A stretch of 26,571 bases of DNA from an uncultured Candidatus Saccharibacteria bacterium (GCA_964619425.1 CAZUDS010000001.1:1-26571); one strand, 5' to 3'. Counted from the first letter of the stretch, positions 1 through 26,571 are shown. Made by a program: numbers and translations. Notes: generated by a model from the sequence alone, not told the origin.

Positions 1-9
1 TACATAGTA

Positions 10-57
10 ATTCGCGTGTGCCTATTCGTTAAGGCATTCGCATACTGACATTCGCGT
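10..57. repeat. ATTCGC-type tandem repeat arm (4 units, 12-14 bp spacing); partner arm presumably left of the window
   Basis: attcgcgt at 10, attcgtt at 24, attcgcat at 36, attcgcgt at 50; same motif as the GxxExxY flank at 7322-7337. Confidence 0.6.
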
Positions 58-108
58 ATTGGCGTCGGGTTATTTTATTTTAGACCTTTTTAATATTTTG
101 GCAAATAT

Positions 109-1374
109 TTATTCCACAGTTGGTAGGGTAAAATGAAAGGTGCTTCCTTTTCCCTCCTCGGACTCAAACCAAATTTTTCCTCCATGGGCTTCAATAATGT
201 TTTTAGCAATGAAAAGGCCAAGGCCTGAGCCGGTTGTTTCCATTCTCATAATATTAGCCCCTCTGAAAAATTTTGTAAATACCCTTTCTTGCTGGTCCTT
301 CGAAATACCGACTCCCGTATCTTTAATTTCAAACTCTATTTCCTTTATACCTTTTTTCAAAGAAATTGTCATCCTTCCGCCTGGCATTGTATATTTAATT
401 GCATTATCAAGAAAATTTTGGACAACTAATTTTATCTTTTCCACATCCACCCGAACTTGAGGAAGCTTTTCTAGGGGGATGAGAAAACCAAAGTTAATCT
501 GCCGTCTTGATATCTCCTCTTTAAAAACATCTATTACCTCTTGACAAATCTTTTCAAACTGAACCGAAGTCAGCTTAAAAACATATCTTCCTTCCTCGAT
601 CCGAGCCACATTTAAGAGGTCGTTGATTAAACCAATCATTCTTTCATTGGACTGATAGGTTTTTTCAAGGAAGCCCAACTGCTCCTTGGTAAGCTTTCCT
701 AGATCTCCTTCCAAAAGCATCCGCAAGGTCCATTTAATTGCTGAAAGAGGCGTTCTCAGCTGATGAGCGGCGATAGAAACAAATTCGGTTTTCATCCTCT
801 CAATATGTTTTTCCCGGGTAACATCATGTAAAATTAACAAGGTGCCGATTTTTTTTCCTCCCTCTCCGGAAATAGGAAGCGAGCTTACTTCTAAAATTAG
901 ATTCTCGGCAATTTTTAACTTTTCTCTAAAAATTCTTTCAGGTTTCTTTTCTAAAAAGTCCAATAAAATCTTTAATTTAGGAAATTCCTTGAGAGCAGGA
1001 ACTTTTTTGCCGATAACTTCTTTGGCCTTTGCTTCAAAAAAAATTTTTGCCTGAGGATTAAAAATTGTTAAAACTAACTCATTGTCAAAAAATAAAAGAG
1101 CGTCAGCAAAATGATAAATAATTGCCTGGGTTTTATTTTTTTCTTCTTCAGCCCTTTTCCTGGCTTCTTCCACATCTTCCAAAATATTCATTAGGGCTCT
1201 TCTTGATTCTTCTAATCCTTTGGTTTTTGCTTGCGATTGCTGAAATTCTTCTTCTCTTTTTTCTCCAGGCAGAGTTAACTCCAGATCTCGCCTAACCAAC
1301 ATTTTAGCGATTCGGCCTGATTCTTGGGTTTCTCTTTCTCTTTTCTTAATTTTTTTAGTCAATTTTTCTTCCAT
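109..1374 (-). CDS. Cytoplasmic sensor histidine kinase (coiled coil - PAS - HisKA - HATPase_c), no transmembrane segment
   Basis: H box [13 protein letters not shown] box [11 protein letters not shown]1 DTGVGI, F box VFTKFFRG, G2 GSGLGL; PAS-like stretch ending HDVTREK. Confidence 0.95.
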
Positions 1375-1435
1375 CCCATTAGAAATTAATTTACCCCGTT
1401 AGAAAAATTAAAAACACTGCAAAATTTCTAACGGG
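1375..1435. repeat. CCCCGTTA...TAACGGGG palindromic element, copy 1
   Basis: cccgttagaaa (1395-1405) and tttctaacggg (1425-1435) form an 11-bp perfect IR; extra degenerate arm cccattagaaatt at 1375-1387. Confidence 0.85.
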
Positions 1436-1610
1436 ATTCATTAAAAAATAAACTGCCCCGAGTTACTGGCTTAACTTGCTAATTTTGCCCAAGACCAAAC
1501 ACTTCATTGCAATGACAATATCACGAATTAAAAGTTCGGGAGAACCTTCAACGTTCTGTGTTTAATTTTAGGGATGCCCGCCACATTTGCTTCTTTTATG
1601 CTTTTGGCAA

Positions 1611-1699
1611 CCCCTACTAGAGGATTATTCTTTTTATTTCTTTGCCAAGGCCTTATAGCTCTTTGTCTTTTTTCTTTACCGCTATAATCTCTAACGGGG
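1611..1699. repeat. CCCCGTTA-family palindromic element, copy 2 (degenerate)
   Basis: cccctactagaggattat (1611-1628) versus ataatctctaacgggg (1684-1699), an imperfect IR with a taacgggg terminus. Confidence 0.6.
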
Positions 1700-1706
1700 C
1701 AAAGAA

Positions 1707-3161
1707 TTATTCTTTTCCTTCCGACTCATTATTAAGTTTCTTTTTTAATTCCTCAAGTTCTTTCTTAATCTCTATCATTCTGAGTTCCCGGCCAATAGCC
1801 AACTTATTAAATTTTTCCAATTCTTCCATTTTTTCTTGAATCTCCCTTGTTTTTTCTTTTACCTGTTTATCAAGGCTTACGGCAAGTTCTTTTAATTCTT
1901 TTGTTCTCTCTTTAACTTTTACTTCTAAAATATCTCGCGCCTCTTTTACTTGATTGAAAGACGAATTAAAGGCCTCTTCTAATTCTTTAAATTCTTGGTA
2001 ATGCTTGGAAATCTCTATTTTTTTATCTTCTTTTTTGGTTTTTAGTTGACCAATAAAAGATGTAATTGGATAAACTAATTTCTTTCGTATTAAAAGATAG
2101 AAAGAACCAAAAATTATCAAAAAGGAAAGAAGGACTATTAAAATTAAACCAATTAAAAAATTTTTTTGCTCTAAATAGGCATCTATTTCCATACTTATCC
2201 CCCTCAAAGAAGCAAAATTTCCATAATCATCCAACTCCAACCAATAAACAACTCTATAATAAGCGCTTGTTTCGTCGTGGTGTGTCAGTTTGATTTCTTC
2301 AACAGTATATTCTTCCAGGACAAAGTTTTCTGTTTTCCATTCTAATTCTTTGCCAATTATTTTTTCTCTTCTCTCTTCTGCTGCTGCAACCAAGGCCTGA
2401 CTTGGCTTTATTTTCTCAGCGCTTTTTGGCGCAAAAAAGGAACCAACCACCTCTCCTGTTGGAAGAATTGCCGTAAAGGCGACGCCCGTTACCGCTTTAA
2501 TTGCCCCAACTAATTCTTTATGTTCGTTGACAAAAGAAACCCTAATTAAAACCCCGACCTGTTTATCATTTTCTTTGTCTATTACCGGGGTCATAATAGT
2601 TAAGCCCATTCCCGGCAGACCAAAACGATCGTAACCCTCTCTTCTCAAAAAATTTCTGTCATAGATTATTTTTCTAACGTCCACATTGCCATTCAAGGCC
2701 ATAGTAAGAGCTTGCTCAAAGGCGGAAGAAGGAATCCAACCATCTTTAATATGTCCTTCTTGAGCCAACTCTATTCTTTTCTTTCCCACCAATTCTCCTC
2801 TCGCCACAATAAACCCTTCTTGGTCAATAACCAACAGAACATCGCTGTCCAAAAGCACTCCAACTCTTTCCTCCCTTTCTTCTATTTGTATAAGACCTTC
2901 AAGAACCTCTTTTTTACCTCCGATCTCCAATAATTCTACTATCTCCTTGGCGACAATATAGTCGTTCAAACGAGCTTGTTTTAGTGTGCTTGATATTAGT
3001 ATATCCGCTTTTTCTATGTGAGTGATATGATGTTTTTCAATGGTTGTTCTTTGTGTTTCTATGAAAACCCAAAAGAAAAAAACAAAAACGACAGATAGTA
3101 TTAAAAAGCTAATAATAAATCTTCTTTGAACGCTTTTATCTATTTTTGGTAATTTAGCCAT
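1707..3161 (-). CDS. Membrane sensor protein: TM - extracytoplasmic Cache-like domain - TM - HAMP-like/coiled-coil tail, no kinase domain
   Basis: Two hydrophobic helices (FIISFLILSVVFVFFFWVFI; FLIGLILIVLLSFLIIFGSFYLLI), Cache-like motifs LLVIDQEGFIVAR and TPVIDKENDKQVGVL, terminal coiled coil FNKLAIGRELRMIEIKKEL. Confidence 0.8.
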   Translation of the reverse strand: MAKLPKIDKSVQRRFIISFLILSVVFVFFFWVFIETQRTTIEKHHITHIEKADILISSTLKQARLNDYIVAKEIVELLEIGGKKEVLEGLIQIEEREERVGVLLDSDVLLVIDQEGFIVARGELVGKKRIELAQEGHIKDGWIPSSAFEQALTMALNGNVDVRKIIYDRNFLRREGYDRFGLPGMGLTIMTPVIDKENDKQVGVLIRVSFVNEHKELVGAIKAVTGVAFTAILPTGEVVGSFFAPKSAEKIKPSQALVAAAEERREKIIGKELEWKTENFVLEEYTVEEIKLTHHDETSAYYRVVYWLELDDYGNFASLRGISMEIDAYLEQKNFLIGLILIVLLSFLIIFGSFYLLIRKKLVYPITSFIGQLKTKKEDKKIEISKHYQEFKELEEAFNSSFNQVKEARDILEVKVKERTKELKELAVSLDKQVKEKTREIQEKMEELEKFNKLAIGRELRMIEIKKELEELKKKLNNESEGKE

Positions 3162-3256: not shown

Positions 3257-3264
3257 GGCTATTT

Positions 3265-3345: not shown

Positions 3346-4290
3346 TTATGGTAACCTTTCTATTAAACTAAAAAATTCAAATTTCTTTAAAATTTGAGTG
3401 GCTTTTTCTTTTTTATAATTTTCCCATTGGCATTCTTTTAAGTTAAAATCCAAAGGCACATTTTTGTGTATCTCGGCTAAATCCCTGCTGAAAAAGGCCT
3501 GCTCTTTGTATTCTTCGAGCTTCACTCGAAGACGCTGATTTACGCTGATTAGCACTGCCTTCGGCAGTGGCCGCTGATTTGATGCTGAATATAAGCTTTC
3601 TAAGCTACCGAATTCTTTAATTAATTTAATGGCGGTCTTCTCCCCTATCCCGGGCACACCAGGAATATTATCTGAAGGGTCGCCCTTTAAGGCCTTGAAG
3701 TCAACTAATTGCTCGGGGTTTAAGCCATATCTTTTTTTAACTGCCTCTTCATCATACAAAACAGTATCTTTTAGTCCTTTTTTAAAAGTATAGACCTTGG
3801 TGTTTTCATCAATTAATTGAAGGGTATCTAAGTCGCCGCTAAGAATAATATTTTCCACTAGAGAATAAGCTTGTCCCGCGCCAGAGATTTCGTTTTGGCG
3901 CAAGGCAGATCTTTTAACCGACTCTTTACTCAAGGTGCCAATAAGGTCATCGGCTTCGTATCCCTCTTTTTCAAAAACAGCAACATTAAATGCCTTTAAT
4001 ATCTCTTTTACCTTTGGAATTTGTTGGACTAATCCCTCCGGGGTTTTGGGTCTTTTTGCCTTATATTCTTTAAATTTTTGATGGCGAAAAGTAGGCGCTG
4101 GCAAATCAAAGCAAGCAGCTATAAAATCTGGCTTTAGTTCTCTGATGGCCTTAAAAAAAACCAATAAAAATCCATAAGCGGCATTGACCAATTCCCCTTT
4201 CTTGGTAGTCAAGGGAGGCAGAGCATGATAGGCCCGATGAATTAAAGCATTGCTGTCAATAATAATAAGCCGTTTTTTTTCTTTAGTCAT
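3346..4290 (-). CDS. 5'-3' exonuclease / flap endonuclease (PolA N-terminal domain, without the polymerase domain)
   Basis: IIDSNALIHRAYHA, CFD, GYEADDLIGTL, SGDLD, KGDPSDNIPGVPGIGEKTA (H3TH); ends at 314 aa. Confidence 0.92.
   Translation of the reverse strand: MTKEKKRLIIIDSNALIHRAYHALPPLTTKKGELVNAAYGFLLVFFKAIRELKPDFIAACFDLPAPTFRHQKFKEYKAKRPKTPEGLVQQIPKVKEILKAFNVAVFEKEGYEADDLIGTLSKESVKRSALRQNEISGAGQAYSLVENIILSGDLDTLQLIDENTKVYTFKKGLKDTVLYDEEAVKKRYGLNPEQLVDFKALKGDPSDNIPGVPGIGEKTAIKLIKEFGSLESLYSASNQRPLPKAVLISVNQRLRVKLEEYKEQAFFSRDLAEIHKNVPLDFNLKECQWENYKKEKATQILKKFEFFSLIERLP
3532..3590. repeat. CGCTGAT decamer repeat arm with internal hairpin, inserted in frame in the exonuclease gene
   Basis: acgctgattt acgctgatta - cactgcc ttc ggcagtg hairpin - ccgctgattt gatgctgaat; encodes SASNQRPLPKAVLISVNQR. 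Confidence 0.8.
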
Positions 4291-4378: not shown

Positions 4379-4408
4379 CAGGGATCGGGTCCCTGGACCC
4401 GATCCCTG
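4379..4408. repeat. REP-like 30-bp palindrome downstream of the transposase
   Basis: cagggatcgggtcc-ct-ggacccgatccctg, perfect 14-bp arms. Confidence 0.95.
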
Positions 4409-4413
4409 TTTTT

Positions 4414-5124
4414 TTATTCTAGGGCGAGATCGGGAAACTTTTTGATTTTTCCTTTATATTGTATCCAATAATCCACAAATTTCTTCCAATCTTTTGGTTC
4501 CATTATCTTTAAAAGAAAATCTCTATCCGTGACTGAGGGAAAATTCTTTTTGCCAATATAGTCAGGATAACTTGACCATTTATAGTTTTCTAGAAATTCA
4601 ATAACTTTCTCTGGCTTTGTTATTTCTTCTTCTTTCCAGTTTGGCTCTACAAGGGCCACAGGATTAGTATGAATATATACAAAGACCGTTTTTAGCTGTT
4701 CATCATTTTTAATGTGAATAGCGCCAAATCTGCTTTGAAAAACATGTCCCATGCGATTATATTTTTTATTTAAATAACCTCCGTAGCCAGCACCCAGTTT
4801 CTGCATAAATTTTGAAATTCCCCCTTCTTTTATTTGTTTTAATAATAAATGAATATGATTCGGCATAAAACAAAAGGTCAAAATTTCCACCAACTTATCC
4901 CTTTTATCAACAACAGGAATCAAACCCTTGCTGGATTTTTTGAAACGGGCACGGGCCTCTCTCCGTTCTCTTATAGTAATTAGTCTTGTGGTATTGAACT
5001 CGTAGATAGAAAAAATCCCTCTGTAGTAATCATTAATGTCTTTGAAAACCAAATTCTCATCAATCCCCCTCAAGACAACATGATAAATTTCATCATTAAC
5101 AAATTGTTGGCGTCTATAAGGCAT
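4414..5124 (-). mobile_element. REP-associated tyrosine (HUH/Y1) transposase, RAYT / IS200-like
   Basis: IYHVVLRG, HUH motif FMPNHIHLLL, GHVFQSRF, catalytic Tyr region YIHTNP, YKWSSY; ATG start at 5124 preferred over TTG at 5139; flanked by palindromes. Confidence 0.92.
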
Positions 5125-5144
5125 AACTAGAATCCCCAAGCCCC

Positions 5145-5174
5145 CAGGGATCGGGTCCAGGGACCCGATCCCTG
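5145..5174. repeat. REP-like 30-bp palindrome upstream of the transposase
   Basis: cagggatcgggtcc-ag-ggacccgatccctg, arms identical to 4379-4408. Confidence 0.95.
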
Positions 5175-5178
5175 TTTT

Positions 5179-5724
5179 TTATTTTAGCATGGAGTTGTGA
5201 TTCTTTGAAATTGTAATTTTTCTTGTTTTTTTGTCAAGAAAATCGAAGTGTAGGCAGATTGTATTTTTTGGTAGTATCTTACCAAGCCGCTCTGCCCACT
5301 CAATAGCCACAATATTTTGAGGGTCAGAGATTATTTTTTTGAAACCCAAAACCAAAATCTCTTTTGGTTTCTCAACTCGATAACAGTCGATGTGATAGAG
5401 AGTAGAGGGTAGAGAGTAGAGAGTAGAGGATAGAGGGTGGCGCGTAGTTTTTTTTCTACCTTCTACTTTCCGCTCTCCACTTTCTATTTGAAATTTTCGC
5501 ATGATAATAAATGTCGGACTCAAAATTTTCTCTTTTACTCCCAGGCCCTTAGCAAAACCCTGCAAAAAAGTTGTTTTCCCTCCTCCTAAATCACCGAGCA
5601 AAGCCAAAACAACTGCGTTTTTTCGCAATTCTTTTCTTAAGATCTCTTTTGCTAAATTTTGTCCTAATTTTCTTGTCTCTCCGGGTAAAAAAGTGATAAA
5701 TTGGCTTCGTCTTGTTTTTGACAT
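5179..5724 (-). CDS. tsaE: tRNA threonylcarbamoyladenosine biosynthesis ATPase TsaE, with a repeat-derived insertion
   Basis: LLGDLGGGKTTF (Walker A), SPTF, YHIDCYR, IEWAE. Confidence 0.95.
   Translation of the reverse strand: MSKTRRSQFITFLPGETRKLGQNLAKEILRKELRKNAVVLALLGDLGGGKTTFLQGFAKGLGVKEKILSPTFIIMRKFQIESGERKVEGRKKTTRHPLSSTLYSLPSTLYHIDCYRVEKPKEILVLGFKKIISDPQNIVAIEWAERLGKILPKNTICLHFDFLDKKTRKITISKNHNSMLK
5396..5488. repeat. Inverted heptamer arrays inside tsaE (TAGAGRR x6 / YTCYRYY x5)
   Basis: tagagag tagaggg tagagag tagagag tagagga tagaggg (5396-5437) and ttctacc ttctact ttccgct ctccact ttctatt (5454-5488). Confidence 0.88.
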
Positions 5725-6888: not shown

Positions 6889-6898
6889 AAATAATATA

Positions 6899-6937
6899 AT
6901 GCGAATGATGCGAATGGTATTCGAATGCTGCGAATAG
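6899..6937. repeat. GCGAAT repeat arm downstream of the GxxExxY gene
   Basis: atgcgaatg atgcgaatg gtattcgaatg ctgcgaatag; abuts the stop codon at 6938-6940. Confidence 0.88.
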
Positions 6938-7339
6938 CTATTTTATATCTCGGTTTAGAACTCTTTTAGGGTAAAGATATTTTTGACGAAAATTAACAAT
7001 TAAACCTAATTTTTTATTACAAGAGACAAGGTACCGACGTAACTGAAAATAATCATCTTTTGCTATAAAGGGTTTTGCCTTTATCTCTAAAACAATTCTA
7101 TCGTCAATAATAAAATCGGGAATATTTCTTTCTTCTTTTTCTCCCTTAAAAGAAGGAGGTAATGCTTTTTCACGTACATATCCTATCTTATTTTCTTTTA
7201 ATAATTCCTCTATCGCGTCAGCATATTGCCTCTCGTTTCTATATCTCCCTAATTTATTATGAACATAAAAACAGAGACCACAAGTTTTATAAGATAATTC
7301 GGGATGGACTATATTGTTTTTTATTCGCAGCATTCGCAT
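6938..7339 (-). CDS. GxxExxY family protein (PD-(D/E)XK nuclease-like)
   Basis: LGRYRNERQY, PDFIIDDRIVLEIKA, QLRRYL, LGLIVNF. Confidence 0.92.
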   Translation of the reverse strand: MRMLRIKNNIVHPELSYKTCGLCFYVHNKLGRYRNERQYADAIEELLKENKIGYVREKALPPSFKGEKEERNIPDFIIDDRIVLEIKAKPFIAKDDYFQLRRYLVSCNKKLGLIVNFRQKYLYPKRVLNRDIK

Positions 7340-7344
7340 TTCAT
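7322..7344. repeat. ATTCGC repeat arm upstream of, and overlapping the start of, the GxxExxY gene
   Basis: tattcgcagcattcg (7322-7336) is the exact reverse complement of cgaatgctgcgaata (6922-6936). Confidence 0.85.
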
Positions 7345-7357
7345 TTGTAGATTGGCA

Positions 7358-7564: not shown

Positions 7565-7585
7565 AGATACATTATAGCTTATTTT

Positions 7586-7687
7586 GCCCCGTTACTCATA
7601 ATTATTGTAGATAGATTCAAACTATTTGCCCTATTACATTATAAATCTCTGTAATTGTCCAGTAGCTGGATTTATGAGTAACGGGGC
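7586..7687. repeat. CCCCGTTA-family palindromic element, copy 4
   Basis: gccccgttactcataa (7586-7601) and ttatgagtaacggggc (7672-7687) form a perfect 16-bp IR with a 70-bp loop. Confidence 0.9.
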
Positions 7688-7752
7688 TTTATATAAACCA
7701 AAAACACCGCTTGGTCTGGTGGTGCTTTTGGAATGATTTCGGAGCAAAACGT

Positions 7753-7788
7753 CTGCCCCGCTGCTCATAATTATAAGTAACGAGGCAG
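7753..7788. repeat. CCCCGTTA-family element, copy 5 (loop-less, degenerate sister of copy 4)
   Basis: ctgccccgctgctcataa|ttataagtaacgaggcag; 4 mismatches in 18 bp, 3 of them G-T wobbles on the minus strand. Confidence 0.75.
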
Positions 7789-9477: not shown

Positions 9478-9557
9478 AGCTTATTTGTAGGAATTAGACG
9501 CGTTGTTTACAGTTCTTTAGAAGGAAAATTCTAAGTTCTAAACGAATCCCAACAATA

Positions 9558-9708
9558 AAATCCCAAATCCCAAATTCCAAATCACAAATAAATTCCAATG
9601 ACCGAAATCCCAATGACCGAAACAGAATTGTTTATAAAGAAGGTTTTGGTCATTTGGTCATTGGAATTTGGATATTGTTTGTTATTTGGTGCTTGGTGCT
9701 TGGAATTT
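9558..9708. repeat. 'Empty' CCAAAT/ATTTGG heptamer inverted-arm element (same family as the four-helix-bundle flanks)
   Basis: Left arm aaatccc aaatccc aaattcc aaatcac...caatgaccgaaac (9558-9623), 19-bp spacer, right arm gttttggtcatttggtcattg...ggtgcttggaattt (9643-9708). Confidence 0.92.
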
Positions 9709-9892
9709 AAAGAAATAAAAAGTGTAAACAACGCTCGGAATTCTTACAACTTATTATATTATTGTTTTTATAAAACTATCTCGACCTTTGTTTGTGACGC
9801 TGATGCGCCTCTTATTATTTTATCACAAAAACAAAATTCTCTAAAGCCAAATCAACGGGGTTTACCCAAAAATTGGAGGGCTTGTCTTTTAA

Positions 9893-12169: not shown

Positions 12170-12231
12170 TGAGTTAGTGTTGGGCTTAGGCCTAACACTC
12201 AAACATAGACGCTCACTTCGTTCGCGCCTAT

Positions 12232-12344
12232 ACGCGGATTTATGCTGATTTAGAATTATCCGCTGATTTACGCTGATAAGTAAGGGATTCCTTTTTAATC
12301 AGCGTCTATCAGCGTTAAAAAGTTAATCAGCGTTATATCAGCGT
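12232..12344. repeat. 'Empty' CGCTGAT/ATCAGCG decamer inverted-arm element (4+4 units, 17-bp spacer)
   Basis: acgcggattt atgctgattt..ccgctgattt acgctgataa / aatcagcgt ctatcagcgt..aatcagcgt tatatcagcgt. Confidence 0.9.
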
Positions 12345-12367
12345 ATCGGAATTTTCAAATTCCGATA
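12344..12367. repeat. Perfect hairpin just before the PBP1A start
   Basis: tatcggaattt-tc-aaattccgata, 11-bp arms. Confidence 0.75.
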
Positions 12368-14290: not shown

Positions 14291-14305
14291 AATTCGCAAC
14301 CCATA

Positions 14306-14366
14306 ATGTTCAGATCCCGGCTTCGAACATTGGTTTTAGCAGTGTTCAGATCCCGGCTTCGAACAT
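14306..14366. repeat. Pair of ATGTTCAGATCCCGGCTTCGAACAT REP-like repeats
   Basis: Copies at 14306-14330 and 14342-14366 (24 of 25 bp identical), between convergent genes. Confidence 0.92.
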
Positions 14367-14659: not shown

Positions 14660-14692
14660 TGGAGAGTAGAGGATAGAAAGTAGGCCGCCTAC
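14660..14692. repeat. Short TAGAGRR heptamer run plus hairpin
   Basis: tggagag tagagga tagaaag, then gtaggc-c-gcctac; same unit family as the tsaE insertion. Confidence 0.55.
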
Positions 14693-15840: not shown

Positions 15841-16267
15841 ATTTTTAGACCATTGAATAACTCCCGTTTTTCTACGAAATTATCTATATTTATCTATTTC
15901 TATTCGTCTAATAGGGGCTGATTTACGCTGATAATAACACTGATTTACGCGGAAAAAATTGTTCAACAATCTTAATTATAAATTAAATTAATTATTATAG
16001 TTATTATTAAGGAAAAGATTTTTTGGGAATTATCTTGTTTATTAAAGAATTAGCAGCGTTTCGGTATCTTAAAACTAGTTAAAAAAATAAAGAATTACTT
16101 TGGGAATAAAATTTTATTAAAATTCTTCTCTTTTTATTCAGTATTTTTCCCCAAAAATTCCAGGGCCTTAATATGACAATCCGGAGAAAGTTTTATTTCG
16201 GATTTCCCGCCAAAACACTCCTGAAATACTCAAAAAATACTGTAATTTCTATTTCGTAATTCAAAAA
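15841..16267. other. Candidate oriC segment (dnaA-dnaN intergenic, very AT-rich)
   Basis: Near-pure A/T tract ~15972-16010; DnaA-box-like tgggaatta (16024), tgggaataa (16101), ttttcccca (16145); position between dnaA and dnaN. Confidence 0.5.
15916..15956. repeat. Solitary CGCTGAT decamer arm (4 units)
   Basis: ggctgattt acgctgataa ta acactgattt acgcggaaaa. Confidence 0.8.
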
Positions 16268-17611: not shown

Positions 17612-17619
17612 ATTAAAAG

Positions 17620-17689
17620 GGGTTTAGGTTGCAGCTTTTAGGCGCTTCCTGATAACCTAAAACCTAATAACCTAAAACCTAATAACCTA
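17620..17689. repeat. AACCTA/TAGGTT heptamer-octamer inverted arrays in the dnaA leader
   Basis: (ataacctaaaaccta)x2 + ataaccta at 17652-17689; opposing tttaggtt and ttttagg at 17623-17642. Confidence 0.75.
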
Positions 17690-17701
17690 CAAGCTGTCTG
17701 T

Positions 17702-17803: not shown

Positions 17804-17826
17804 TTTCCGAGCCGGATCGCTAAGCC

Positions 17827-17893
17827 ATGTTCGAAGCCGGGATCTGAACATCAATAAAAGCGCGCCTGGATGTTCGGAGCCGGGCTTTGAACG
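17827..17893. repeat. Pair of ATGTTC...GAACAT REP-like repeats, inverted orientation
   Basis: Exact reverse-complement copy at 17827-17851; degenerate copy at 17870-17893. Confidence 0.88.
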
Positions 17894-17922
17894 CAGACAC
17901 CAGCCATCAATTTTCAGTATAT

Positions 17923-19740: not shown

Positions 19741-20185
19741 TTTGAAAAAAATTAGGGCTGTTTGTCAAGAATTTTTTGAAAAAATGGGTTTTTTAGGGTC
19801 ATTAGAAGTAGGAGAGACCCGAGACAGAACCTTGCCCGTAAGAATAAGGACTGAGGAGCCCCGAATTTTAATTGGTCGAAACGGGCAGACCCTCTCGGAA
19901 ATTCAACATTTATTAAAGGCAGTTCTGCGAAGGAAATTTGGCAGCGATTTTTATCTTGACTTAGATATTAATGGCTACAAGGAGAAAAAAATAGAGTACT
20001 TAAAGGATTTAGCCCAAGTTACAGCTGATGAGGTTTCTTTAAGCAAAAAGCAAAAAACCCTGGCGCCAATGTCCTCTTATGAAAGAAGAATTATTCATCT
20101 TGAATTAGCTGAGCGTCAGGATGTTGTTACCGAAAGCATGGGCCAGGGATTAGAAAGAAGGGTGATAATCAAGCCCGGGTCCTGA
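19724..20185 (+). CDS. jag: Jag/KhpB (EloR-like) KH + R3H RNA-binding protein
   Basis: LIGRNGQTLSEIQHLL (KH), LDINGYK, PMSSYERRIIHLEL (R3H), RRVIIKP. Confidence 0.92.
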   Translation: MQNQFDLKKIRAVCQEFFEKMGFLGSLEVGETRDRTLPVRIRTEEPRILIGRNGQTLSEIQHLLKAVLRRKFGSDFYLDLDINGYKEKKIEYLKDLAQVTADEVSLSKKQKTLAPMSSYERRIIHLELAERQDVVTESMGQGLERRVIIKPGS

Positions 20186-20189
20186 AATA

Positions 20190-20324
20190 ATGTTCAGATC
20201 CCGGCTTCGAACATCCAAGTGGGTACAAATTACAAATGACTTACAAATATACAAATATTTGTATATTTGTATTTATTCGTAATTCGTACACTTTTATTGA
20301 TGTTCAGATCCCGGCTTCGAACAT
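20190..20324. repeat. Composite element: two direct ATGTTC...GAACAT REPs enclosing a TACAAAT/ATTCGTA inverted-arm element
   Basis: Exact 25-mers at 20190-20214 and 20300-20324; perfect 30-bp palindrome tacaaatatacaaat|atttgtatatttgta at 20242-20271; outer arms 20223-20237/20275-20289. Confidence 0.9.
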
Positions 20325-20361: not shown

Positions 20362-21771
20362 TTAAAATACTTCAAGAACCTGGAGAATTAGAAAGGACTT
20401 GGGTCTAGTGGGTTCAGGCTCAAGCGGCCAATAAAGACGGCCATCTGCTGTATCGCCAAAATTAGGCACATCTGTATGAAACCAATAAGTGTCTCCTCGG
20501 TCCCAGTGCTTTTTATTTCCTGGCTCTGTTGGCCAAAGGAAAACAAGATATTTAACTGATTTGTCCGCATCAATTTCCATTGACAAGGGATACCAGCCAT
20601 TACCCTTTGTTGAAGCAACATTTCGTATTCTTTCGCCAGGCGGCTCACCAGGCACTATCCCATGGTAGAGTCCCGGTTCCTCTCCTTTTAGTTCTGCCAT
20701 TACTCTTTGGCAGCCATATCTTGAGATATTATCGCCGCTTATTTCTAAACATGCTCCTTTGCCTGGGTATTCTCTATCAGGATAATGGTGCTCAAAGAAA
20801 GTTATGCCATCCATACCCGCAGTATAGATAGATTCAGCTGGTCTTTTAAAAAATAACATCGAAAGACAGGGGACATTAAGTCCCGGGTCAGGGATTTCAG
20901 GGTTTAGTACAAAATATTCTATCCTATCTTTCTTGTCCCTCTCTATCAACACACTAGGCCCTGTAAATCTACTATCAAGGATTCTGACTCTTCCTCGGAG
21001 TTCAGGATATTCAAAACAGGCAAGACCATAGTAATGTAAGGCCTCATCTTCATATTTATGTTCAAGCGTTACCGGGTCTCTTATATACTCACGTGTTTCT
21101 GGGTCTATTTTCTTTTTCTTTGGGCTGACAAAAACAAAAGAGTGCATCTCGCCCGTCAAATCAATACTTCCTCCGCCAGCAAGAGGAAATTCTTCCACCC
21201 GGCCAACCTGGGGGATATTTCCAGAAGGTATTCTAATTATTCCAGGCACTCTACTTATTCCTTCTCCGCTTTTTCTTTCCTCTATTAAAAATTTATAATG
21301 CAAATGGACGGGAATTAAAGCTATTCCATCTCTAAAAGAAGCTGGCTCCCCGCCGGGCAGTACTGGTTCTATGGGCTTAGGCATATGAATAACAACTAAT
21401 CCAGGGTCAATGGTATGTAAAATTACCCAGGAACCGAGGAGCAGGGCTAAGCCCAAAAAAGCAGCAATAATTTGTTTTTTGGCTTCTGACTTGGCGGTTG
21501 GACTGCCCAAAGAGATAAGAAAACGGATGCCCCCATAAATCAGAGCGCAAAAAGCAATAATTCCGCCAATAATAACAATAAAATAATAAATATAGAGAGC
21601 CAAACCACCCAGTCCCATATCATGAGTAATTCTGAGCGGTATTCTAAAACCAGGCAGATTCAGCTCAGGATATCTAAGCTGAAGCTCGGCCCGGACTGAA
21701 GCAAAGGGAAAACAGGCGAGAAAAAAGAGAAAAACAAGAAAAAGAATTTTGACTAATTTTTGATAGTCCAT
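20362..21771 (-). CDS. VirB2/TrbC-like (T4SS_pilin) protein A with a long beta-rich C-terminal passenger
   Basis: Signal peptide MDYQKLVKILFLVFLFF; pilin hairpin YYFIVIIGGIIAFCALIYGGIRFLISLGSPTAKSEAKKQIIAAFLGLALLLGSWVILHTIDP; ATG start at 21771 preferred over GTG at 21825, which lies in repeats. Confidence 0.85.
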   Translation of the reverse strand: MDYQKLVKILFLVFLFFLACFPFASVRAELQLRYPELNLPGFRIPLRITHDMGLGGLALYIYYFIVIIGGIIAFCALIYGGIRFLISLGSPTAKSEAKKQIIAAFLGLALLLGSWVILHTIDPGLVVIHMPKPIEPVLPGGEPASFRDGIALIPVHLHYKFLIEERKSGEGISRVPGIIRIPSGNIPQVGRVEEFPLAGGGSIDLTGEMHSFVFVSPKKKKIDPETREYIRDPVTLEHKYEDEALHYYGLACFEYPELRGRVRILDSRFTGPSVLIERDKKDRIEYFVLNPEIPDPGLNVPCLSMLFFKRPAESIYTAGMDGITFFEHHYPDREYPGKGACLEISGDNISRYGCQRVMAELKGEEPGLYHGIVPGEPPGERIRNVASTKGNGWYPLSMEIDADKSVKYLVFLWPTEPGNKKHWDRGDTYWFHTDVPNFGDTADGRLYWPLEPEPTRPKSFLILQVLEVF

Positions 21772-21777
21772 TTTTAA

Positions 21778-21849
21778 GTTGTAGGTTGTAGGTTGTAGGT
21801 TGTAGGTTGTAGAACTACCCTCCACCCTCTACCCTCTACCCCCCATTCT
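21778..21849. repeat. GTTGTAG x5 / CTACCCT x4 opposing heptamer arrays
   Basis: Exact gttgtag x5 at 21778-21812; ctaccct ccaccct ctaccct ctacccc at 21815-21842. Confidence 0.9.
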
Positions 21850-21851
21850 AC

Positions 21852-22528: not shown

Positions 22529-22623
22529 TTCCGCGCAAATCTGCGTTTTGATCAGCGTTTTATCTGCTTCTATTGGTTTTTACGTGAATTTGCGCTGATA
22601 TAAACGTTGATTATCGTTGATAA
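22529..22623. repeat. ATCAGCG/CGCTGAT decamer arms in tail-to-tail arrangement
   Basis: atctgcgtt, atcagcgtt, atctgctt (22539-22569) then acgtgaattt gcgctgatat aa acgttgatta tcgttgataa (22582-22623). Confidence 0.75.
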
Positions 22624-22644: not shown

Positions 22645-23571
22645 TTAGAAATAATGACAATAAAAGTCCAGTTCTGAGCATTCGGCTAAAAAACCTAAAT
22701 GCCTTGCTTCAGCGCAAATCCAGAGATGAGCGGTCATTCTTGTCCGGCAATGACTTATTTGTCTTCGGTAATTGTCAAATTCAATTTGAACTTTGGTTAG
22801 AAGTTTAATTTTTTCTTCTAAAAGCAAAATTTCCTTTTCTAAATCAGGCAGAAGTTGCTCGGCTAATTTTGTCGCGCTGCTACGAATTTGGGGGAGGCAG
22901 CCTCTGTTATCCTGCTTAGGAGGACAAATAGCACAGCATGTAGGACATCCAACCCTACAGTCGCTCCTAAAACTCCCACAATTACATCCCTGAGCAGCCG
23001 TTCTGAGTCCTTTAGCTGTATTGGCTATGTTATGGGGTCCGGTTATTAAATCATTCATTTTCTTAGCAATTGCTAAACTTTGTTTTTCTAAATCATGGAT
23101 TGCCTTAAAAGTTCTTTCAATAGGAATATGGGTTAGGCCTATTTTCCTTGGCGCTACCAGGCCAGGGTCAACTAATTCAGGCCTTTCTAAGGGCCGGACT
23201 GGCAAAATTTCAATTTCCCAAATTACTAATTTTGGGTCAATAGTGCTTAAGATAACATAGGAAGAGAACAAGAGCAAAAGACCCAAAAAGCAAGAAATCA
23301 CTCTTTGCCTTGCTTCTGACATTAATTTAGGATTGCCAAACGAAACAAGATATAAGAAGCCGGCATAAATGAGCAAACCGAGAGACAAAATAACTCCTAA
23401 GACCAAAAGGATTTGGTAAAAATAACGGAGCAGGTCAGGAATTTCTCTAGCCGGCGCTTCAATTCCTGGCAGAGCCGGGAGTTCTATTTCTTGAGCCGAG
23501 ACAATGGAAAAGCAGACGGGAAAAAAGAGAAAAACAAGAAAAAGAATTTTGACTAATTTTTGATAATTCAT
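22645..23571 (-). CDS. VirB2/TrbC-like pilin B fused to a Cys-rich helical-hairpin domain
   Basis: Signal peptide MNYQKLVKILFLVFLFF; LIYAGFLYLVSFGNPKLMSEARQRVISCFLGLLLLFSSYVILSTIDP; 12 Cys in the passenger; ends LDFYCHYF; ATG start at 23571 preferred. Confidence 0.85.
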   Translation of the reverse strand: MNYQKLVKILFLVFLFFPVCFSIVSAQEIELPALPGIEAPAREIPDLLRYFYQILLVLGVILSLGLLIYAGFLYLVSFGNPKLMSEARQRVISCFLGLLLLFSSYVILSTIDPKLVIWEIEILPVRPLERPELVDPGLVAPRKIGLTHIPIERTFKAIHDLEKQSLAIAKKMNDLITGPHNIANTAKGLRTAAQGCNCGSFRSDCRVGCPTCCAICPPKQDNRGCLPQIRSSATKLAEQLLPDLEKEILLLEEKIKLLTKVQIEFDNYRRQISHCRTRMTAHLWICAEARHLGFLAECSELDFYCHYF

Positions 23572-23583
23572 GTTTTTTTGTAT

Positions 23584-23624
23584 GTCGTGGGTTGTAAGAT
23601 GTAGAGCTACCTTCCACCCTCTAC
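23584..23624. repeat. Degenerate homologue of the 21778-21849 heptamer junction
   Basis: gtcgtgg gttgtaa gatgtag agctacct tccaccct ctac. Confidence 0.7.
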
Positions 23625-24308
23625 CTACAAAATCGGGCAAATATAATAGTCCAAACCGCTTTTTTGACATTCAATAAGTTGTCCTTGTTCTGTCCTTAAG
23701 CCGATGCTCTGAGCATGAAAGCAATTAAAAAGCAAGGTTCTTTCAAGGTCTCTTTGCGCCAATTTAGTTCCTGTGTTATTGAGTTTATCTTTTAGTTGGT
23801 CTAATTCAGGCGATAATTCTTCTAAAAGAATGCGTCTGGTTTCTTTGACTTCTTCTTCTAAGTTTCTGGCTTTTTCATAAAGTCTGGCAATTTCCCGTTT
23901 TTGGTAATCTGTAAGTCCGCCGGAACAAGGCCCGCCACAACCACCCTTGCCGCAGTCGCATTCAGAATCCATTCCTCTGCCATCTATGTTACCTGTTAGT
24001 ATTAATTCTCCATTAACTCTCTTATAAAATTGCATCCCGCGTTCTCGGCTTAATATCTGAGATATTTGAACAGTTATTTTGTTTATTTCGGAAAAGTCCT
24101 CCTCGGCCTTTGCTAAAAGTTGAATCATTTCATTTTGGATTTCCAAGGCCCGCTTGGGAATTTGACCTAGAGCCAGGACTGGCTGACATTCACCAATTGT
24201 ATCAACCAGAGAAGAGACCTGTTTTTTGGGCCAGACAAAAAATAGCAGACAAAGGAAAATGGTCAGGACTAAAAAGAGGAAAAGATTTTTTTTCCAGAAT
24301 TTATTCAT
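23625..24308 (-). CDS. Secreted/anchored Cys-rich helical-hairpin protein D (unknown family)
   Basis: N-terminal hydrophobic LFLFLVLTIFLCLLFFVW; helix - CDCGKGGCGGPC loop - helix; ends LDYYICPIL; ATG start at 24308 preferred. Confidence 0.8.
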   Translation of the reverse strand: MNKFWKKNLFLFLVLTIFLCLLFFVWPKKQVSSLVDTIGECQPVLALGQIPKRALEIQNEMIQLLAKAEEDFSEINKITVQISQILSRERGMQFYKRVNGELILTGNIDGRGMDSECDCGKGGCGGPCSGGLTDYQKREIARLYEKARNLEEEVKETRRILLEELSPELDQLKDKLNNTGTKLAQRDLERTLLFNCFHAQSIGLRTEQGQLIECQKSGLDYYICPIL

Positions 24309-24382
24309 TTTACTTTGAATGACGAAATAGAAATTACGAGGACTATTACAGCTGTTCACGCTCTTAATTCAATACAAGGTTT

Positions 24383-24424
24383 CCGCTGATTTACGCTGAT
24401 ATAGGTGCTGATTATCGCTGATTA
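24383..24424. repeat. Solitary CGCTGAT decamer arm (4 units)
   Basis: ccgctgattt acgctgatat ag gtgctgatta tcgctgatta; 19 bp identical to 12260-12278. Confidence 0.85.
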
Positions 24425-24447
24425 TTGTATTTTGTAATTAAAGGATT

Positions 24448-25458
24448 TTAGTCGCCAAAACAATAAAAATATAACGGATTTCTATTACCTATATTAAAAT
24501 GGTCCAAAAAATCTTTTTGCTCTGCCTGGCTATTAATTAAAACATCTTTGCCTCCTTCTAACAAGCAATTACTTAAAATTCTCAGGTCTCGTATTAATTT
24601 TTTGGCTTGTTCTGAGGCGACTGTTTCGGCTATTATTTGCTCAAGTCCAGGCAGAGGTGTTTGGGTGTTGAAGTCCGTTTCTAAAACAATGGCCGGGACA
24701 GTAGGCCAGCGGCAGGATACTGGTGTTGGAGTACCACCAGGGCAAGGGTTACATCTTATGTCGACTGGTCGCCTACAGACTGTGCTGGCATCAGAGCAAT
24801 CTATTGCTTGATGAGGGCCTAGAATCCTTGGTTGGTCTGGTTCTCCTGGAGGCGGTGGTGTGTCATCTTGGTGTCCTTGTCGCCCCGGTTGCTCTAAGGT
24901 TTCAAGCAATCCTAATGTCGCCCGGATTCTTCCAGGCAAGTCAAGCGCCTCAAATTCAAAGATTTTTTCCCTTAAGAAATTAATTGTGTTATCAGTGTTT
25001 TGTTCAAAAGTGGTCAGTTGAGTATAGGACTTTGGCATTACTGGCTCAATTTCAACTCTAATTATTGGAGGGAGTTCCGGCGCTTCTTCTCTTAACTCAA
25101 CCCCGGGAACAGTAAGTTTAGGGTCAATGGTTCTGAGAATAATATAGGAAGAGAACAAGAGCAAAAGACCCAAAAAACAAGAAATCATTCTTTGCCTTGC
25201 CTCTGACATTATTTTAGGGTTGCCAAACGAGGTGAGATACAGAAAGCCGGCATAGATTAGCATGGCCAGGGCTATAAGGGCGCCGACAAATAAAAAGAAA
25301 TGATAAATATAGACAGCAAGTTCTTCAAGAGAAACGCCTATCCCAGGAGTGACGACTCCCGGAATGTCCGGCCATTCTATCTCTAATTCGCGACCAAAGA
25401 TAAAAGCCGGCAAAAACAGGAATAAAATCATTAAGAGTAAAGGGATTAGTTTTTTCAT
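24448..25458 (-). CDS. VirB2/TrbC-like pilin C fused to a Cys/Pro-rich helical passenger
   Basis: MKKLIPLLLMILFLF signal; LIYAGFLYLTSFGNPKIMSEARQRMISCFLGLLLLFSSYIILRTIDP; ends LYFYCFGD; the ATG at 25458 overlaps the upstream TGA (ATGA). Confidence 0.85.
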   Translation of the reverse strand: MKKLIPLLLMILFLFLPAFIFGRELEIEWPDIPGVVTPGIGVSLEELAVYIYHFFLFVGALIALAMLIYAGFLYLTSFGNPKIMSEARQRMISCFLGLLLLFSSYIILRTIDPKLTVPGVELREEAPELPPIIRVEIEPVMPKSYTQLTTFEQNTDNTINFLREKIFEFEALDLPGRIRATLGLLETLEQPGRQGHQDDTPPPPGEPDQPRILGPHQAIDCSDASTVCRRPVDIRCNPCPGGTPTPVSCRWPTVPAIVLETDFNTQTPLPGLEQIIAETVASEQAKKLIRDLRILSNCLLEGGKDVLINSQAEQKDFLDHFNIGNRNPLYFYCFGD

Positions 25459-25859
25459 GATGAGTGTTTTAATTCTAAATAAATTAATATTGTCCACCAG
25501 GTAAAACTTTCAAAAACAAGAACAGGAATAAACTCAAAAATAACAAGAAGCGGTCTGAGCCATCTCATTTTTTTTGCCCACTTCATCGCCCCAACCAACC
25601 TCTTTCCTGTTTTGGCTGGAACCCTTACGGCCCCAGATCTAAAAAGCATCCAAGCGCCAAAAAACAGAAGAGCGAAGATGTCAATGACAAATGAAATTGC
25701 TAGACCAACTACTGGAATCAAGTCAAAGAAAAATTCTGCCACATCAACAGAAACAGCTGTCGTCATCATAAGTACTCCTTCCGGGCTCCATAAAGCGTTA
25801 ATGCCGCTAATATGCTCCTGCCTGGCGCCTTCCTTTTCTATTGTAGCTGTTTCGGTCAT
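25455..25859 (-). CDS. Small multi-pass membrane protein heading the pilin array
   Basis: Hydrophobic segments with DLIPVVG and EFIPVLVFESFTWWT; translationally coupled to pilin C. Confidence 0.75.
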   Translation of the reverse strand: MTETATIEKEGARQEHISGINALWSPEGVLMMTTAVSVDVAEFFFDLIPVVGLAISFVIDIFALLFFGAWMLFRSGAVRVPAKTGKRLVGAMKWAKKMRWLRPLLVIFEFIPVLVFESFTWWTILIYLELKHSS

Positions 25860-25999
25860 AACGTGTCAAACCATTTAACTATTATAACTGCTTTGGTCAG
25901 ATATTTGATAGATTGACGCATTAAGTCATCTAAAATGTAAGTGAAATGGTATTGTTGGGTCATCTAAAAATACTTTGGGTGTCGCATGTTCAACTTTTT

Positions 26000-26065
26000 A
26001 AATTCCAAATTCCAAGCACCAAATTCCAAATAAATTTCAATATTCAATGACCAAATGACCAAAAC
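26000..26065. repeat. CCAAAT heptamer arm downstream of the four-helix-bundle gene
   Basis: aaattcc aaattcc aagcacc aaattcc...caatgaccaaatgaccaaaac; abuts the stop at 26066; its reverse complement shares 21 exact bp with 9643-9663. Confidence 0.92.
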
Positions 26066-26428
26066 TTATTTAGATTTTTCTATTATTGAAGAAAATATCT
26101 TTTTTAATTCTATTGCCTCTTTTAGAAGTTCTTCGCCTTCTTTTTTGAATTTCTCCTCATCGGTCTCAATTATTAGTCTCAACCAATGAACCGATTCTTT
26201 TGCTTCTTTCCTACATATTTTTATTCTCATTCTAAAGTCCTTTTTGCTAAATGACTCGTTAGCTTCGATGTAATTCGCTCCCACTGAACCCGATGATCTA
26301 ATTACTTGCCTCACATATTCAATGTTACTAATAGTTCTAGACAATTTCTTGCAGAAAAGAGCAACTTTCTTTGCAAATTGGTAGGTTCTTTCTTCTAAAT
26401 CGTATTTATTTCTCGTTGTTTCGGTCAT
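26066..26428 (-). CDS. Four-helix-bundle protein (23S rRNA IVP / bAvd-like family)
   Basis: YDLEERTYQFA, RQVIRSSGSVGANYIEA, SKKDFRMRIKICRKEAKESVHWL, ELLKEAIELKKIFSSI. Confidence 0.95.
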   Translation of the reverse strand: MTETTRNKYDLEERTYQFAKKVALFCKKLSRTISNIEYVRQVIRSSGSVGANYIEANESFSKKDFRMRIKICRKEAKESVHWLRLIIETDEEKFKKEGEELLKEAIELKKIFSSIIEKSK

Positions 26429-26558
26429 TGGAATTTGGTTATTGAATATTATTTGGTATTTGGTGCTTGGTGCTTGGAATTTCTTGTTTCAAAATTTCGG
26501 TCATTGGAATTTGGTTATTGAATATTATTTGGAATTTGGTATTTGGTGCTTGGAATTT
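26418..26558. repeat. Duplicated ATTTGG heptamer arms upstream of the four-helix-bundle gene
   Basis: Arms at 26418-26482 and 26495-26558 share an exact 38-mer (26419-26456 = 26495-26532); the first arm contains the gene's ATG. Confidence 0.92.
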
Positions 26559-26571
26559 GTTTAAAGTTTCG

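Follow-up and report, generated by a model that had tools for sequence, protein, structure and literature searches.

Small genes between inverted arms of tandem short units, and their gene-less remnants, in a Candidatus Saccharibacteria contig

The DNA analysed here (the window) is a complete metagenomic contig of 26,571 nt from an uncultured Candidatus Saccharibacteria bacterium (GCA_964619425.1, CAZUDS010000001.1:1-26571), a small-genome organism. It covers the replication-origin neighbourhood and is AT-rich (approximately 38% GC), with dnaN and dnaA on the minus strand and rpmH-rnpA-yidD-yidC-jag on the plus strand. Two cassettes could be recognised between its protein-coding genes. Each cassette is one gene of 115–135 amino acids (aa), bracketed from its start codon to just past its stop codon by inverted arms of 25–70 nt that are made of degenerate tandem 7–10-nt units. 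By profile matching, the cargo is either a predicted four-helix-bundle '23S rRNA intervening sequence (IVS) protein' or a predicted GxxExxY protein with a PD-(D/E)XK nuclease fold. Intergenic DNA made up 15% of the window, and the hexamers of the array units were concentrated there; by inspection, most intergenic spacers longer than approximately 50 bp hold a tandem array or another hairpin repeat. Tandem 6–10-nt arrays covered 477 bp, compared with 49 +/- 28 bp in dinucleotide shuffles. The features of the two cassettes are as follows.

26066–26428, minus strand: cargo gene 1, four-helix-bundle protein (23S_rRNA_IVP / TIGR02436), 120 aa
26429–26482, minus strand: 5' arm, units CCAAAT / GCACCAA / AATGACC, extending into the start codon (ccaATGACC)
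26000–26065, minus strand: 3' arm, beginning directly past the stop codon (TAAgttttGGTCATTTGGTCATTG...), with the outer cassette boundary at 26000
26495–26561, minus strand: tandem duplicate (76-nt period, 94% identity) of the 5' arm and the first 10 nt of the open reading frame (ORF), at the contig end
6938–7339, minus strand: cargo gene 2, GxxExxY protein (TIGR04256, PF13366 PD-(D/E)XK), 133 aa
7322–7345, minus strand: 5' arm, GCGAAT units, overlapping the first six codons (ATGCGAATGCTGCGAATA)
6893–6937, minus strand: 3' arm, four ATTCGC units in the sense direction

The product of 26066–26428 (minus strand) scored 69.8 bits against TIGR02436 (cutoff 24) and 50.7 bits against PF05635 (cutoff 33.8), and matched PDB entry 2rld with an E-value of 9e-12. 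Domain searches returned PF05635 only, with no transposase domain, and no catalytic signature was seen in the protein. Its family includes bAvd, the accessory protein of diversity-generating retroelements (DGR), and the S23p ORF of 23S rRNA IVSs. The arms were complementary over 55 nt at 80% (26000–26054 against 26428–26482), and the start-codon stretch ccaATGACC pairs with GGTCATTGG immediately past the stop codon. When two whole cassettes were folded, the arms paired and the start codon was buried in the stem (z-scores of -8.3 and -3.3). An exact look-up of the 120-aa protein gave no match, and a 160-aa call of the same gene was matched.

The product of 6938–7339 (minus strand) scored 72.7 bits against TIGR04256 (cutoff 35) and 77.6 bits against PF13366 (PDDEXK_3; cutoff 22); PF13366 was the only domain found in the searches, and no transposase domain was returned. 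Complementarity of the arms (6893–6936 against 7322–7345) was 87–88%, the first six codons being GCGAAT units paired with the post-stop ATTCGC units. In the alignment, G31, E36, Y39, D75 and K87 were invariant and position 85 was E or D, which completes the PD...(D/E)xK signature as D75...(E/D)85-x-K87. The AlphaFold (AF2) model had a pLDDT of 85, and a Foldseek search of the PDB placed PD-(D/E)XK proteins at all top ranks with marginal E-values (1e-3 to 0.1) and TM values of approximately 0.45–0.52; these included alkaline exonuclease, Cas4 SSO0001, MGME1 and Hjc Holliday-junction resolvases of similar size. The original prediction, made from the sequence alone, had placed these two genes between inverted arms and had assigned them a four-helix and a PD-(D/E)XK fold, and both positions and both family assignments were confirmed; the PD-(D/E)XK fold is supported by the Pfam match, the motif and the model, with the marginal fold-search values given. 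The GxxExxY locus of another sample (L092; collected loci and homologous proteins are given by L and P numbers) was 100% identical to the window and showed no polymorphism. The PADLOC defence-system models gave no match to either cargo, and PHROGs yielded nothing for the four-helix protein and, for the GxxExxY protein, a single weak match, to a phage family whose function is unknown.

Copies of the cassettes could be found in other genomic contexts. Window positions 26000–26482 matched locus L001 at 98.8% over 483 bp, where an identical four-helix protein is encoded between unrelated genes; the similarity ended there and the flanks were unrelated. Thirteen contigs carry a homologue with 80% protein identity (P0006); its arms are recognisably homologous, and at least two contexts could be told apart, whose common DNA was only the 530-bp cassette. 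The cassette of P0056 occurred in two different upstream contexts. GxxExxY homologues of 72–85% identity in other neighbourhoods kept the GCGAAT/ATTCGC arms and the ATGCGAATGC start. In L002, a second, more distant four-helix gene lies beside the first, and its arms (ATTTTCA/TGAAAAT) are built of a different unit and are still complementary. These alignments demonstrate that gene and arms have been inherited and relocated together, and that each cargo lineage has retained its own arm family, which upholds the predicted unit of gene plus arms in unrelated contexts and across phyla. Relatives of the cargo were found at 83–85% identity, and at 69–77% in Aminicenantia, KSB1 and Ignavibacteriales, compared with only 61% for the best DnaA relatives in a collection of 241 million records. 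Cargo that is so much better conserved across phyla than housekeeping proteins suggests horizontal spread. The best matches of the window's small proteins came from Wolfebacteria, Jorgensenbacteria, Portnoybacteria and other Patescibacteria.

Mixed contexts were also observed. In L010 (compared with L004 and L002) and L236 (compared with L232), the sequence to the left of the cassette is that of one copy and the sequence to the right is that of a different copy. The cause is either recombination at the cassettes or chimeric assembly at the repeats. Both ends of the window's contig lie within arm repeats, with ATTCGC units on the left (1–57) and the duplicated four-helix 5' arm on the right (26495–26571). 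This suggests that the assembly broke at multi-copy cassettes, as is expected for multi-copy repeats; cassettes of this kind break metagenome assemblies.

Hairpins and arrays that enclose no gene were found at the following positions.

9558–9708, minus strand: gene-less derivative of the four-helix cassette with both arms kept, arm family of the 26-kb cassette
9485–9517 / 9717–9749, no strand: outer inverted repeat round the gene-less hairpin, forming a nested hairpin (z -6.9)
12228–12346, no strand: gene-less hairpin of 4 + 4 CGCTGAT/ATCAGCG units with a 4-nt loop, between greA and the penicillin-binding protein (PBP) gene
20221–20291, no strand: palindrome of TACAAAT / ATTCGTA units within the spacer of a GTTCAGATCCCGGCTTCGAACAT repeat pair
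10–57, plus strand: ATTCGC array at the contig start, with the sequence type and orientation of the GxxExxY 3' arm
15914–15953, minus strand: solitary CGCTGAT array between dnaA and dnaN, reading ATCAGCG (3'-arm type) along transcription
22584–22620, minus strand: solitary degenerate CGCTGAT array, absent from the original prediction
24382–24421, minus strand: solitary CGCTGAT array upstream of the gene at 23625–24359
14662–14683 and 3531–3550: further solitary arrays
14298–14366, 17826–17895 and 20182–20324: sites of GTTCAGATCCCGGCTTCGAACAT pairs

In the first hairpin, 9563–9613 pairs with 9646–9696, and between these arms stands ATGACCGAAACA, the first 12 nt of the ORF. The hairpin also keeps the post-stop gttttggtcatttggtcatt and shares the 15-nt duplication that produces the MTEIPMT N-terminus in homologue P0039. 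In the second, 12244–12285 pairs with 12290–12331, and the third has a perfect 18-nt palindrome core (20242–20271). Fold z-scores, calculated against 200 shuffles each, were -5.3 for 9558–9707, -8.1 for 12228–12346 and -7.2 for 20221–20291, and in each case none of the 200 shuffles was as good; the gene-less hairpins that had been proposed at 9558–9708, 12232–12344 and 20223–20289 are therefore well folded. A second example came from locus L006. Where L002 and L005 carry their second four-helix gene, the orthologous site of L006, with flanks 92–94% identical to theirs, has no such gene; all that is left of it is the final 12 nt of its ORF, along with the 3' arm and the arrays upstream. Both empty cases are irregular internal deletions and not precise excisions. 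The two cases demonstrate that gene-less hairpins arise by deletions that remove the ORF and leave the arms behind; such hairpins outnumber full copies. The origin of empty arms by gene loss had been predicted, and the ORF remnants in 9558–9708 agree with it, as does the single full/empty difference between orthologous loci, L006 against L002 and L005, which lies outside the window's own sites.

The solitary arrays predicted at 10–57, 15916–15956 and 24383–24424 were present, and none of these (10–57, 15914–15953 and 24382–24421) folds as a hairpin. Array 10–57 is perhaps not solitary, since it lies at the contig end where the assembly is cut off; judged from its sequence type, it may be a cassette 3' arm whose gene lies beyond that end. 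The CGCTGAT arrays of the window enclose no gene. Solitary arrays would most simply be half-remnants. Two of the gene-less hairpins are nested in other repeats: the hairpin at 9558–9708, and that at 20221–20291, so that hairpin loops seem, from these two cases, to be favoured landing sites. The GTTCAGATCCCGGCTTCGAACAT copy at 20182–20324 carries the 70-nt TACAAAT palindrome in its spacer, and the copy at 17826–17895 has the same spacer ends, unfilled.

The association of arms with cargo was evaluated with a flank test, in which the 100 nt upstream and the 100 nt downstream of every complete ORF in the collected loci were compared by a shuffle-normalised alignment score. This score replaced the RNA duplex energy of the flanks, which was dropped because GC content confounds it. 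Flank complementarity with z > 4 was found for 17 of 21 four-helix genes (81%; Mann-Whitney p = 3e-13) and 6 of 11 GxxExxY genes (55%; p = 1e-5), compared with 1.3% of 600 control ORFs. Cultured carriers were examined on finished plasmids, and the arms of their four-helix genes were built of units unrelated in sequence to one another: inverted ATTCAAA heptamers in Nostoc flagelliforme, TAGTGAT x15 in Bernardetia, CAGTTAC/GGTCACT x12 in Euhalothece, CCCCAAT/CGTAAAT in Planktothrix agardhii (plasmid p1, L105) and AGTAAAA in Anabaena cylindrica (pANACY.01, L102). These results demonstrate that the architecture, as recognised in sequence, spans bacteria of the candidate phyla radiation (CPR) to cultured cyanobacteria and Bacteroidota. 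The cassettes of L102 and L105 lie inside defence loci, the former between cas2 and cas1 and the latter between DISARM drmD and the gene of an MmeI-type enzyme.

The CGCTGAT arms of the window could also be followed into other phyla. A 17-mer from these arms, GCTGATTTACGCTGATA, occurred at 118 or more loci in species-representative genomes, often several per genome; the loci listed came from Bacteroidales, Anaerolineae, Saccharibacteria, Desulfovibrionales, Planctomycetes, Omnitrophota, several CPR groups and others. At least 32 of the listed loci are short CGCNGAT...ATCNGCG hairpins. Four of the 12 GxxExxY genes in the listed loci (L221, L172, L121 and L127) begin or end no more than 20 nt from the 17-mer, with approximately 0.12 expected by chance (Poisson estimate), and the GxxExxY genes of L133 and L148 are bracketed by related arms of the CGCTGAT type. 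Because GxxExxY genes are directly bounded by them, CGCTGAT arms are a GxxExxY arm family in other phyla, and this is the link between arm families and cargo genes that the original prediction had called for.

Several further observations concern this arm family. Small PaaX/Cas2-like genes are bracketed by CGCTGAT-type arrays in a Jorgensenbacteria metagenome-assembled genome (MAG; L160, 2830–3318) and a Bacteroidales MAG (L144, 1582–2190); these may represent additional kinds of cargo, or else genes that became enclosed by a pair of arrays. In Bacteroidales MAGs (L144, L128, L199 and L226), CGCNGAT/ATCTGCG units form higher-order tandem arrays of approximately 76–100-bp repeats, each with a hairpin, a minisatellite-like expansion of CGCNGAT units. 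Of two scans of viral contigs for the arm sequences, one yielded no match and the other yielded mostly coding coincidences (GIGHLVIE motif). A small hairpin of ATGACAA/TTGTCAT and TTGGTCA units was seen between two genes of a GC-rich viral contig from IMG/VR (L109, approximately 5540–5610), which places hairpins of this sort on phage-like DNA as well.

Arrays of this kind resemble the short tandemly repeated repetitive (STRR) or heptamer arrays of cyanobacteria, which are likewise tandem 7-nt, intergenic and patchily distributed across phyla. Heptamer repeats of the TAACTGA type are known from Beggiatoaceae, cyanobacteria and Bacteroidetes, with no known mechanism (PMC4679880). The arrays described here are tandem 7-nt repeats, intergenic and present at many loci per genome, and in addition have 8–10-nt units and an organism that is no cyanobacterium. 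STRRs have been described as direct arrays, whereas inverted arms are found here, and STRR-like arrays are the arms of four-helix genes on the plasmids of Nostoc, Planktothrix, Euhalothece and Anabaena. In the literature searched, no paper connected four-helix or GxxExxY genes with heptamer arrays as their inverted arms. The curators' notes on TIGR02436 and TIGR04256 may refer to rRNA IVS settings.

The arrays could accordingly be read as STRR-type repeats generated by slippage, with regulatory or structural roles (terminators, protein sites in 5' untranslated regions (5'-UTR) or mRNA stabilisers), the small genes being normal host genes whose expression is governed by structured UTRs and nothing being mobile. 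For heptamer arrays just 5' of start codons in Beggiatoaceae and cyanobacteria, a role in translational regulation has been suggested (PMC4679880), and all five solitary CGCTGAT arrays here read ATCAGCG toward the downstream start codon, an orientation that fits a 3'-arm remnant and could equally be that of a 5'-UTR or regulatory element. Arrays also adjoin many kinds of gene, including in genomes and regions without cargo genes, and PaaX/Cas2-like and GntR genes stand between such arrays too. However, slippage does not account for arms that travel with their cargo to unrelated contexts at 98–99% identity and abut start and stop codons exactly, for ORF fragments retained in gene-less hairpins, or for cargo much more conserved across phyla than housekeeping proteins; and a terminator role is senseless for hairpins between divergent genes, such as 12228–12346 and the rpmH-dnaA spacers of L047 and L084. 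This explanation is therefore considered unlikely.

We favour, as rather probable, that the window holds representatives, some of them decayed, of a widespread class of small selfish cassettes. Several points besides the uniform orientation of the solitary arrays weigh against this. Approximately 20% of the four-helix genes and 45% of the GxxExxY genes had no detectable arms, and the GxxExxY gene of Treponema (L107) had none, so the association is strong and not universal. No cargo gene was present in 80 dnaA loci (850 kb) of the nearest relatives (DnaA identity of 61% or less), and some of these loci have inverted heptamer arrays though no cargo gene lies nearby, which indicates that arrays can exist without local cargo. 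Neither a target-site duplication nor a conserved insertion motif was found at the boundaries of four cassette copies, and no transposase, integrase or reverse transcriptase in or beside the cassettes, nor was any excision or circular intermediate found; for the mobile or excisable system originally proposed, the mechanistic part thus gained no support. Stem energy in the sense and antisense directions showed no asymmetry (p = 0.49), and equal stability on both strands gives no G-U signature for selection at the RNA level, and none against it. Metagenome contigs may also be chimeric at repeats, as in L010.

The nearest known relative of the cassettes is the ORF-bearing IVS of 23S rRNA, found in Leptospira, in Coxiella burnetii (S23p IVS) and in the rRNA genes of CPR bacteria. 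In such IVSs, a stem-bounded S23p ORF is cut out by RNase III, and mobility was proposed in the 1990s (PMC4990558); insertions in CPR rRNA genes contain 23S_rRNA_IVP ORFs too (PMC11270868). The cargo family (23S_rRNA_IVP/four-helix bundle) is the same, and in both systems the terminal inverted repeats pair into a long stem and leave a single ORF of approximately 120 aa in the loop. Further likenesses are a sporadic distribution with a horizontal pattern, the existence of ORF-less versions and a long-standing suspicion of selfish or mobile nature (PMC4990558, PMC11270868). In contrast to IVSs, which reside in 23S rRNA helix 9, 25 or 45, the present cassettes lie between protein-coding genes; the IVS stem is a unique 28-bp sequence, whereas the arms here are stacked tandem 7–10-nt units; and a second, unrelated cargo, the GxxExxY nuclease fold, has the same anatomy. 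Tandem-unit arms, a second cargo type and abundant remnants are thus additional here. The original prediction had stated that no named mechanism exists for this architecture. This requires a qualification, since ORF-bearing 23S rRNA IVSs share the cargo family and the terminal inverted repeats (PMC4990558).

Other mobile systems are more distant. Miniature inverted-repeat transposable elements (MITEs) and their autonomous parents likewise end in inverted repeats and have more gene-less deletion derivatives than full copies, but the cassettes have no transposase domain and no target-site duplication, and their deletions are irregular and internal. Integron cassettes likewise carry a single promoter-less ORF and an imperfect inverted-repeat site that folds as single-stranded DNA; however, attC is one-sided and requires an integrase and an attI platform, neither of which is present here. 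Repetitive extragenic palindromes and their hairpin-forming pairs (REP/REPIN) with REP-associated tyrosine transposases (RAYTs) resemble the cassettes in their intergenic hairpin repeats, in their many non-autonomous copies and in a small gene between inverted hairpins. They differ in that the cargo here is no Y1/HUH enzyme, that the arms are stacks of tandem units reaching start and stop codons, and that no conserved REP-like tetranucleotide is evident.

A unit of the REP/RAYT kind is present in the window itself:

4379–5174, minus strand: IS200/RAYT-like Y1 transposase unit, gene at 4414–5139, with perfect 30-nt GC-rich palindromes CAGGGATCGGGTCC[C/A]GGGACCCGATCCCTG on both sides

This unit has the classic REP-RAYT arrangement, and its palindromes bear no relation in sequence to the tandem-unit arms. 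The hairpins might be REP/REPIN-like elements that a Y1 (IS200/RAYT-type) transposase, for instance that of 4414–5139, mobilises in trans, with the small genes as trapped passengers. Single-stranded DNA hairpins are the substrates of HUH Y1 enzymes; the Y1_Tnp match of the protein is clear (Pfam, 44.6 bits; cutoff 23), it has its two perfect 30-nt palindromes on either side, and its gene was the top-scoring 'control' of the flank test. RAYTs, however, are specific for their own REPs, and the Y1 palindromes (CAGGGATCGGGTCC...) are GC-rich, have no tandem units and show no relation to any arm family. The REP_Tyr_transpos match of the protein lies under the NCBIfam cutoff (45 against 80 bits), and no Y1 gene was seen beside the cassettes examined elsewhere. 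Mobilisation of this kind is very unlikely.

The relation of cargo 1 to bAvd raises another explanation, in which the stem-loop transcript of a cassette is bound by the bAvd-like four-helix protein, copied by a DGR-type reverse transcriptase in trans and re-integrated. Cargo 1 and bAvd belong to the same protein superfamily (PF05635), which is cited in the DGR context (PMC10053308), and the whole four-helix cassette folds as a single stem-loop RNA. Against this, no reverse transcriptase was found in the window (ORFs of 80 aa or more) or beside any cassette examined, neither poly-A nor template/variable repeat pairs were seen nearby, and GxxExxY cassettes have the same anatomy though they encode no bAvd-like protein. 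Retro-mobility of the cassettes is regarded as extremely unlikely.

Returning to selfish cassettes spread without these enzymes, their anatomy and the relation of full to empty copies are well supported, and the following mechanism is proposed. The arms would pair to one long stem with the ORF looped out, either in the transcript or as a DNA hairpin or cruciform; the data do not distinguish a role of the arms in RNA from one in DNA. Processing by host RNase III, by analogy with 23S rRNA IVSs, may render intergenic insertions harmless to neighbouring genes. Given the IVS precedent (PMC4990558) and the ORFs in CPR rRNA genes (PMC11270868), excision at the RNA level would be the most economical reason for the tolerance of insertions in operons. 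For cassettes within operons, as in cas2-cas1 and the DISARM/MmeI locus, the avoidance of harm to the host matters for annotation and for operon expression. The cargo protein would act on its own arms and promote their copying into new sites, the GxxExxY protein as a structure-specific nuclease and the four-helix protein as a bAvd-like binder of nucleic acid. With the modelled fold in view, it is attractive to suppose that the GxxExxY protein may act as a junction or hairpin nuclease on the cruciform that its arms extrude. The new sites may often be existing hairpin loops or arrays, probably reached via recombination and not by classical transposition.

A wider reading is offered tentatively, as possible and rather doubtful. 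The intergenic tandem-heptamer arrays found across bacteria, including cyanobacterial STRRs, the CGCNGAT hairpins of a dozen phyla and CPR arrays, could be the arms and worn footprints of one superfamily of protein-coding hairpin cassettes, with the 23S rRNA IVS as its rRNA-resident branch. The spread of such cassettes would involve no canonical transposase and would depend on recognition of the arm-formed cruciform or stem by the cassette's own cargo, either PD-(D/E)XK (Hjc-like) or bAvd-like, which would then promote further copies in other hairpin loops or arrays. To our knowledge, the four-helix-bundle/IVS and GxxExxY families are two very large 'hypothetical' protein families without a known role, and we know of no explanation, since approximately 1990, for the tandem heptamer arrays in cyanobacterial, Bacteroidota and CPR intergenic DNA. 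Three puzzles are joined if these proteins and arrays are cargo and arms of one kind of cassette that leaves gene-less remnants.

The remaining arrays of the window are of uncertain membership. Other genes of the window comprise greA, a class A PBP gene, tsaE, a 5'-3' exonuclease gene, a histidine kinase gene and three paralogous genes resembling type IV secretion system (T4SS) pilin genes, and some of the arrays lie in or beside these.

5396–5438, minus strand: TAGAGRG x6 direct array in frame within tsaE
18548–18582/18660–18694, no strand: inverted TAGAGGG-type arms enclosing 77 nt and overlapping the 3' end of rnpA (z -5.9)

The AACCTA (17612–17700, array 17648–17689) and GTTGTAG/CTACCCT (21772–21851, array 21778–21845) arrays were weak as inverted arms (z of -1.5 each), and the TAGAGRG units of tsaE form a direct array only; the claim that all five unit families share one architecture was therefore overstated. 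No cargo could be demonstrated for the TAGAGRG, AACCTA and GTTGTAG arrays, and these and the inverted TAGAGGG pair are at most candidate members of the cassette system. Two arrays had been predicted to lie in frame inside housekeeping genes. The prediction stands for tsaE, where six heptamers make up 14 codons and encode PLSSTLYSLPSTLY in a variable loop just ahead of the conserved HxDxYR motif. It probably fails for 21778–21845, an array that most likely lies upstream of the real start codon, the ATG at 21771, which has a conserved counterpart in the paralogue at 23571. The 5'-3' exonuclease gene holds in-frame CGCTGAT units as well (3531–3573), with ATCAGCGTAAATCAGC translated as ISVNQR, and tandem-unit arrays are thus tolerated inside essential genes (tsaE and the 5'-3' exonuclease).

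The upstream regions of the three tandem T4SS-pilin-like paralogues (20362–21771, 22645–23571 and 24448–25497) are duplicated, including the GTTGTAG/CTACCCT array; 21702–21833 resembles 23502–23625, and 23230–23424 resembles 25117–25311. Inverted heptamer arrays of differing units occupy the rpmH-dnaA spacers of several related genomes, namely those of L047 (1801–1951, TAACATT), L084 (7787–7905, TTAAGAT) and the window (17612–17700, AACCTA). The arrays near dnaA were considered as clusters of DnaA boxes, and this was rejected since DnaA boxes are not enriched in the window. Scans for tRNA and Rfam families returned no tRNA, rRNA or other Rfam family in the window. The 23-nt quasi-palindrome GTTCAGATCCCGGCTTCGAACAT is a third repeat family, whose pairs stand 13–19 nt apart and fold (z of -4.5 to -5.8); no cargo was demonstrated for GTTCAGATCCC pairs. 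A further hairpin family, GCCCCGTTACTCATAATTAT and its complement, could be observed at 7583–7605 and 7677–7692, together with a 36-nt palindrome at 7753–7788, in the spacer of the DUF1858-DUF5667 genes.

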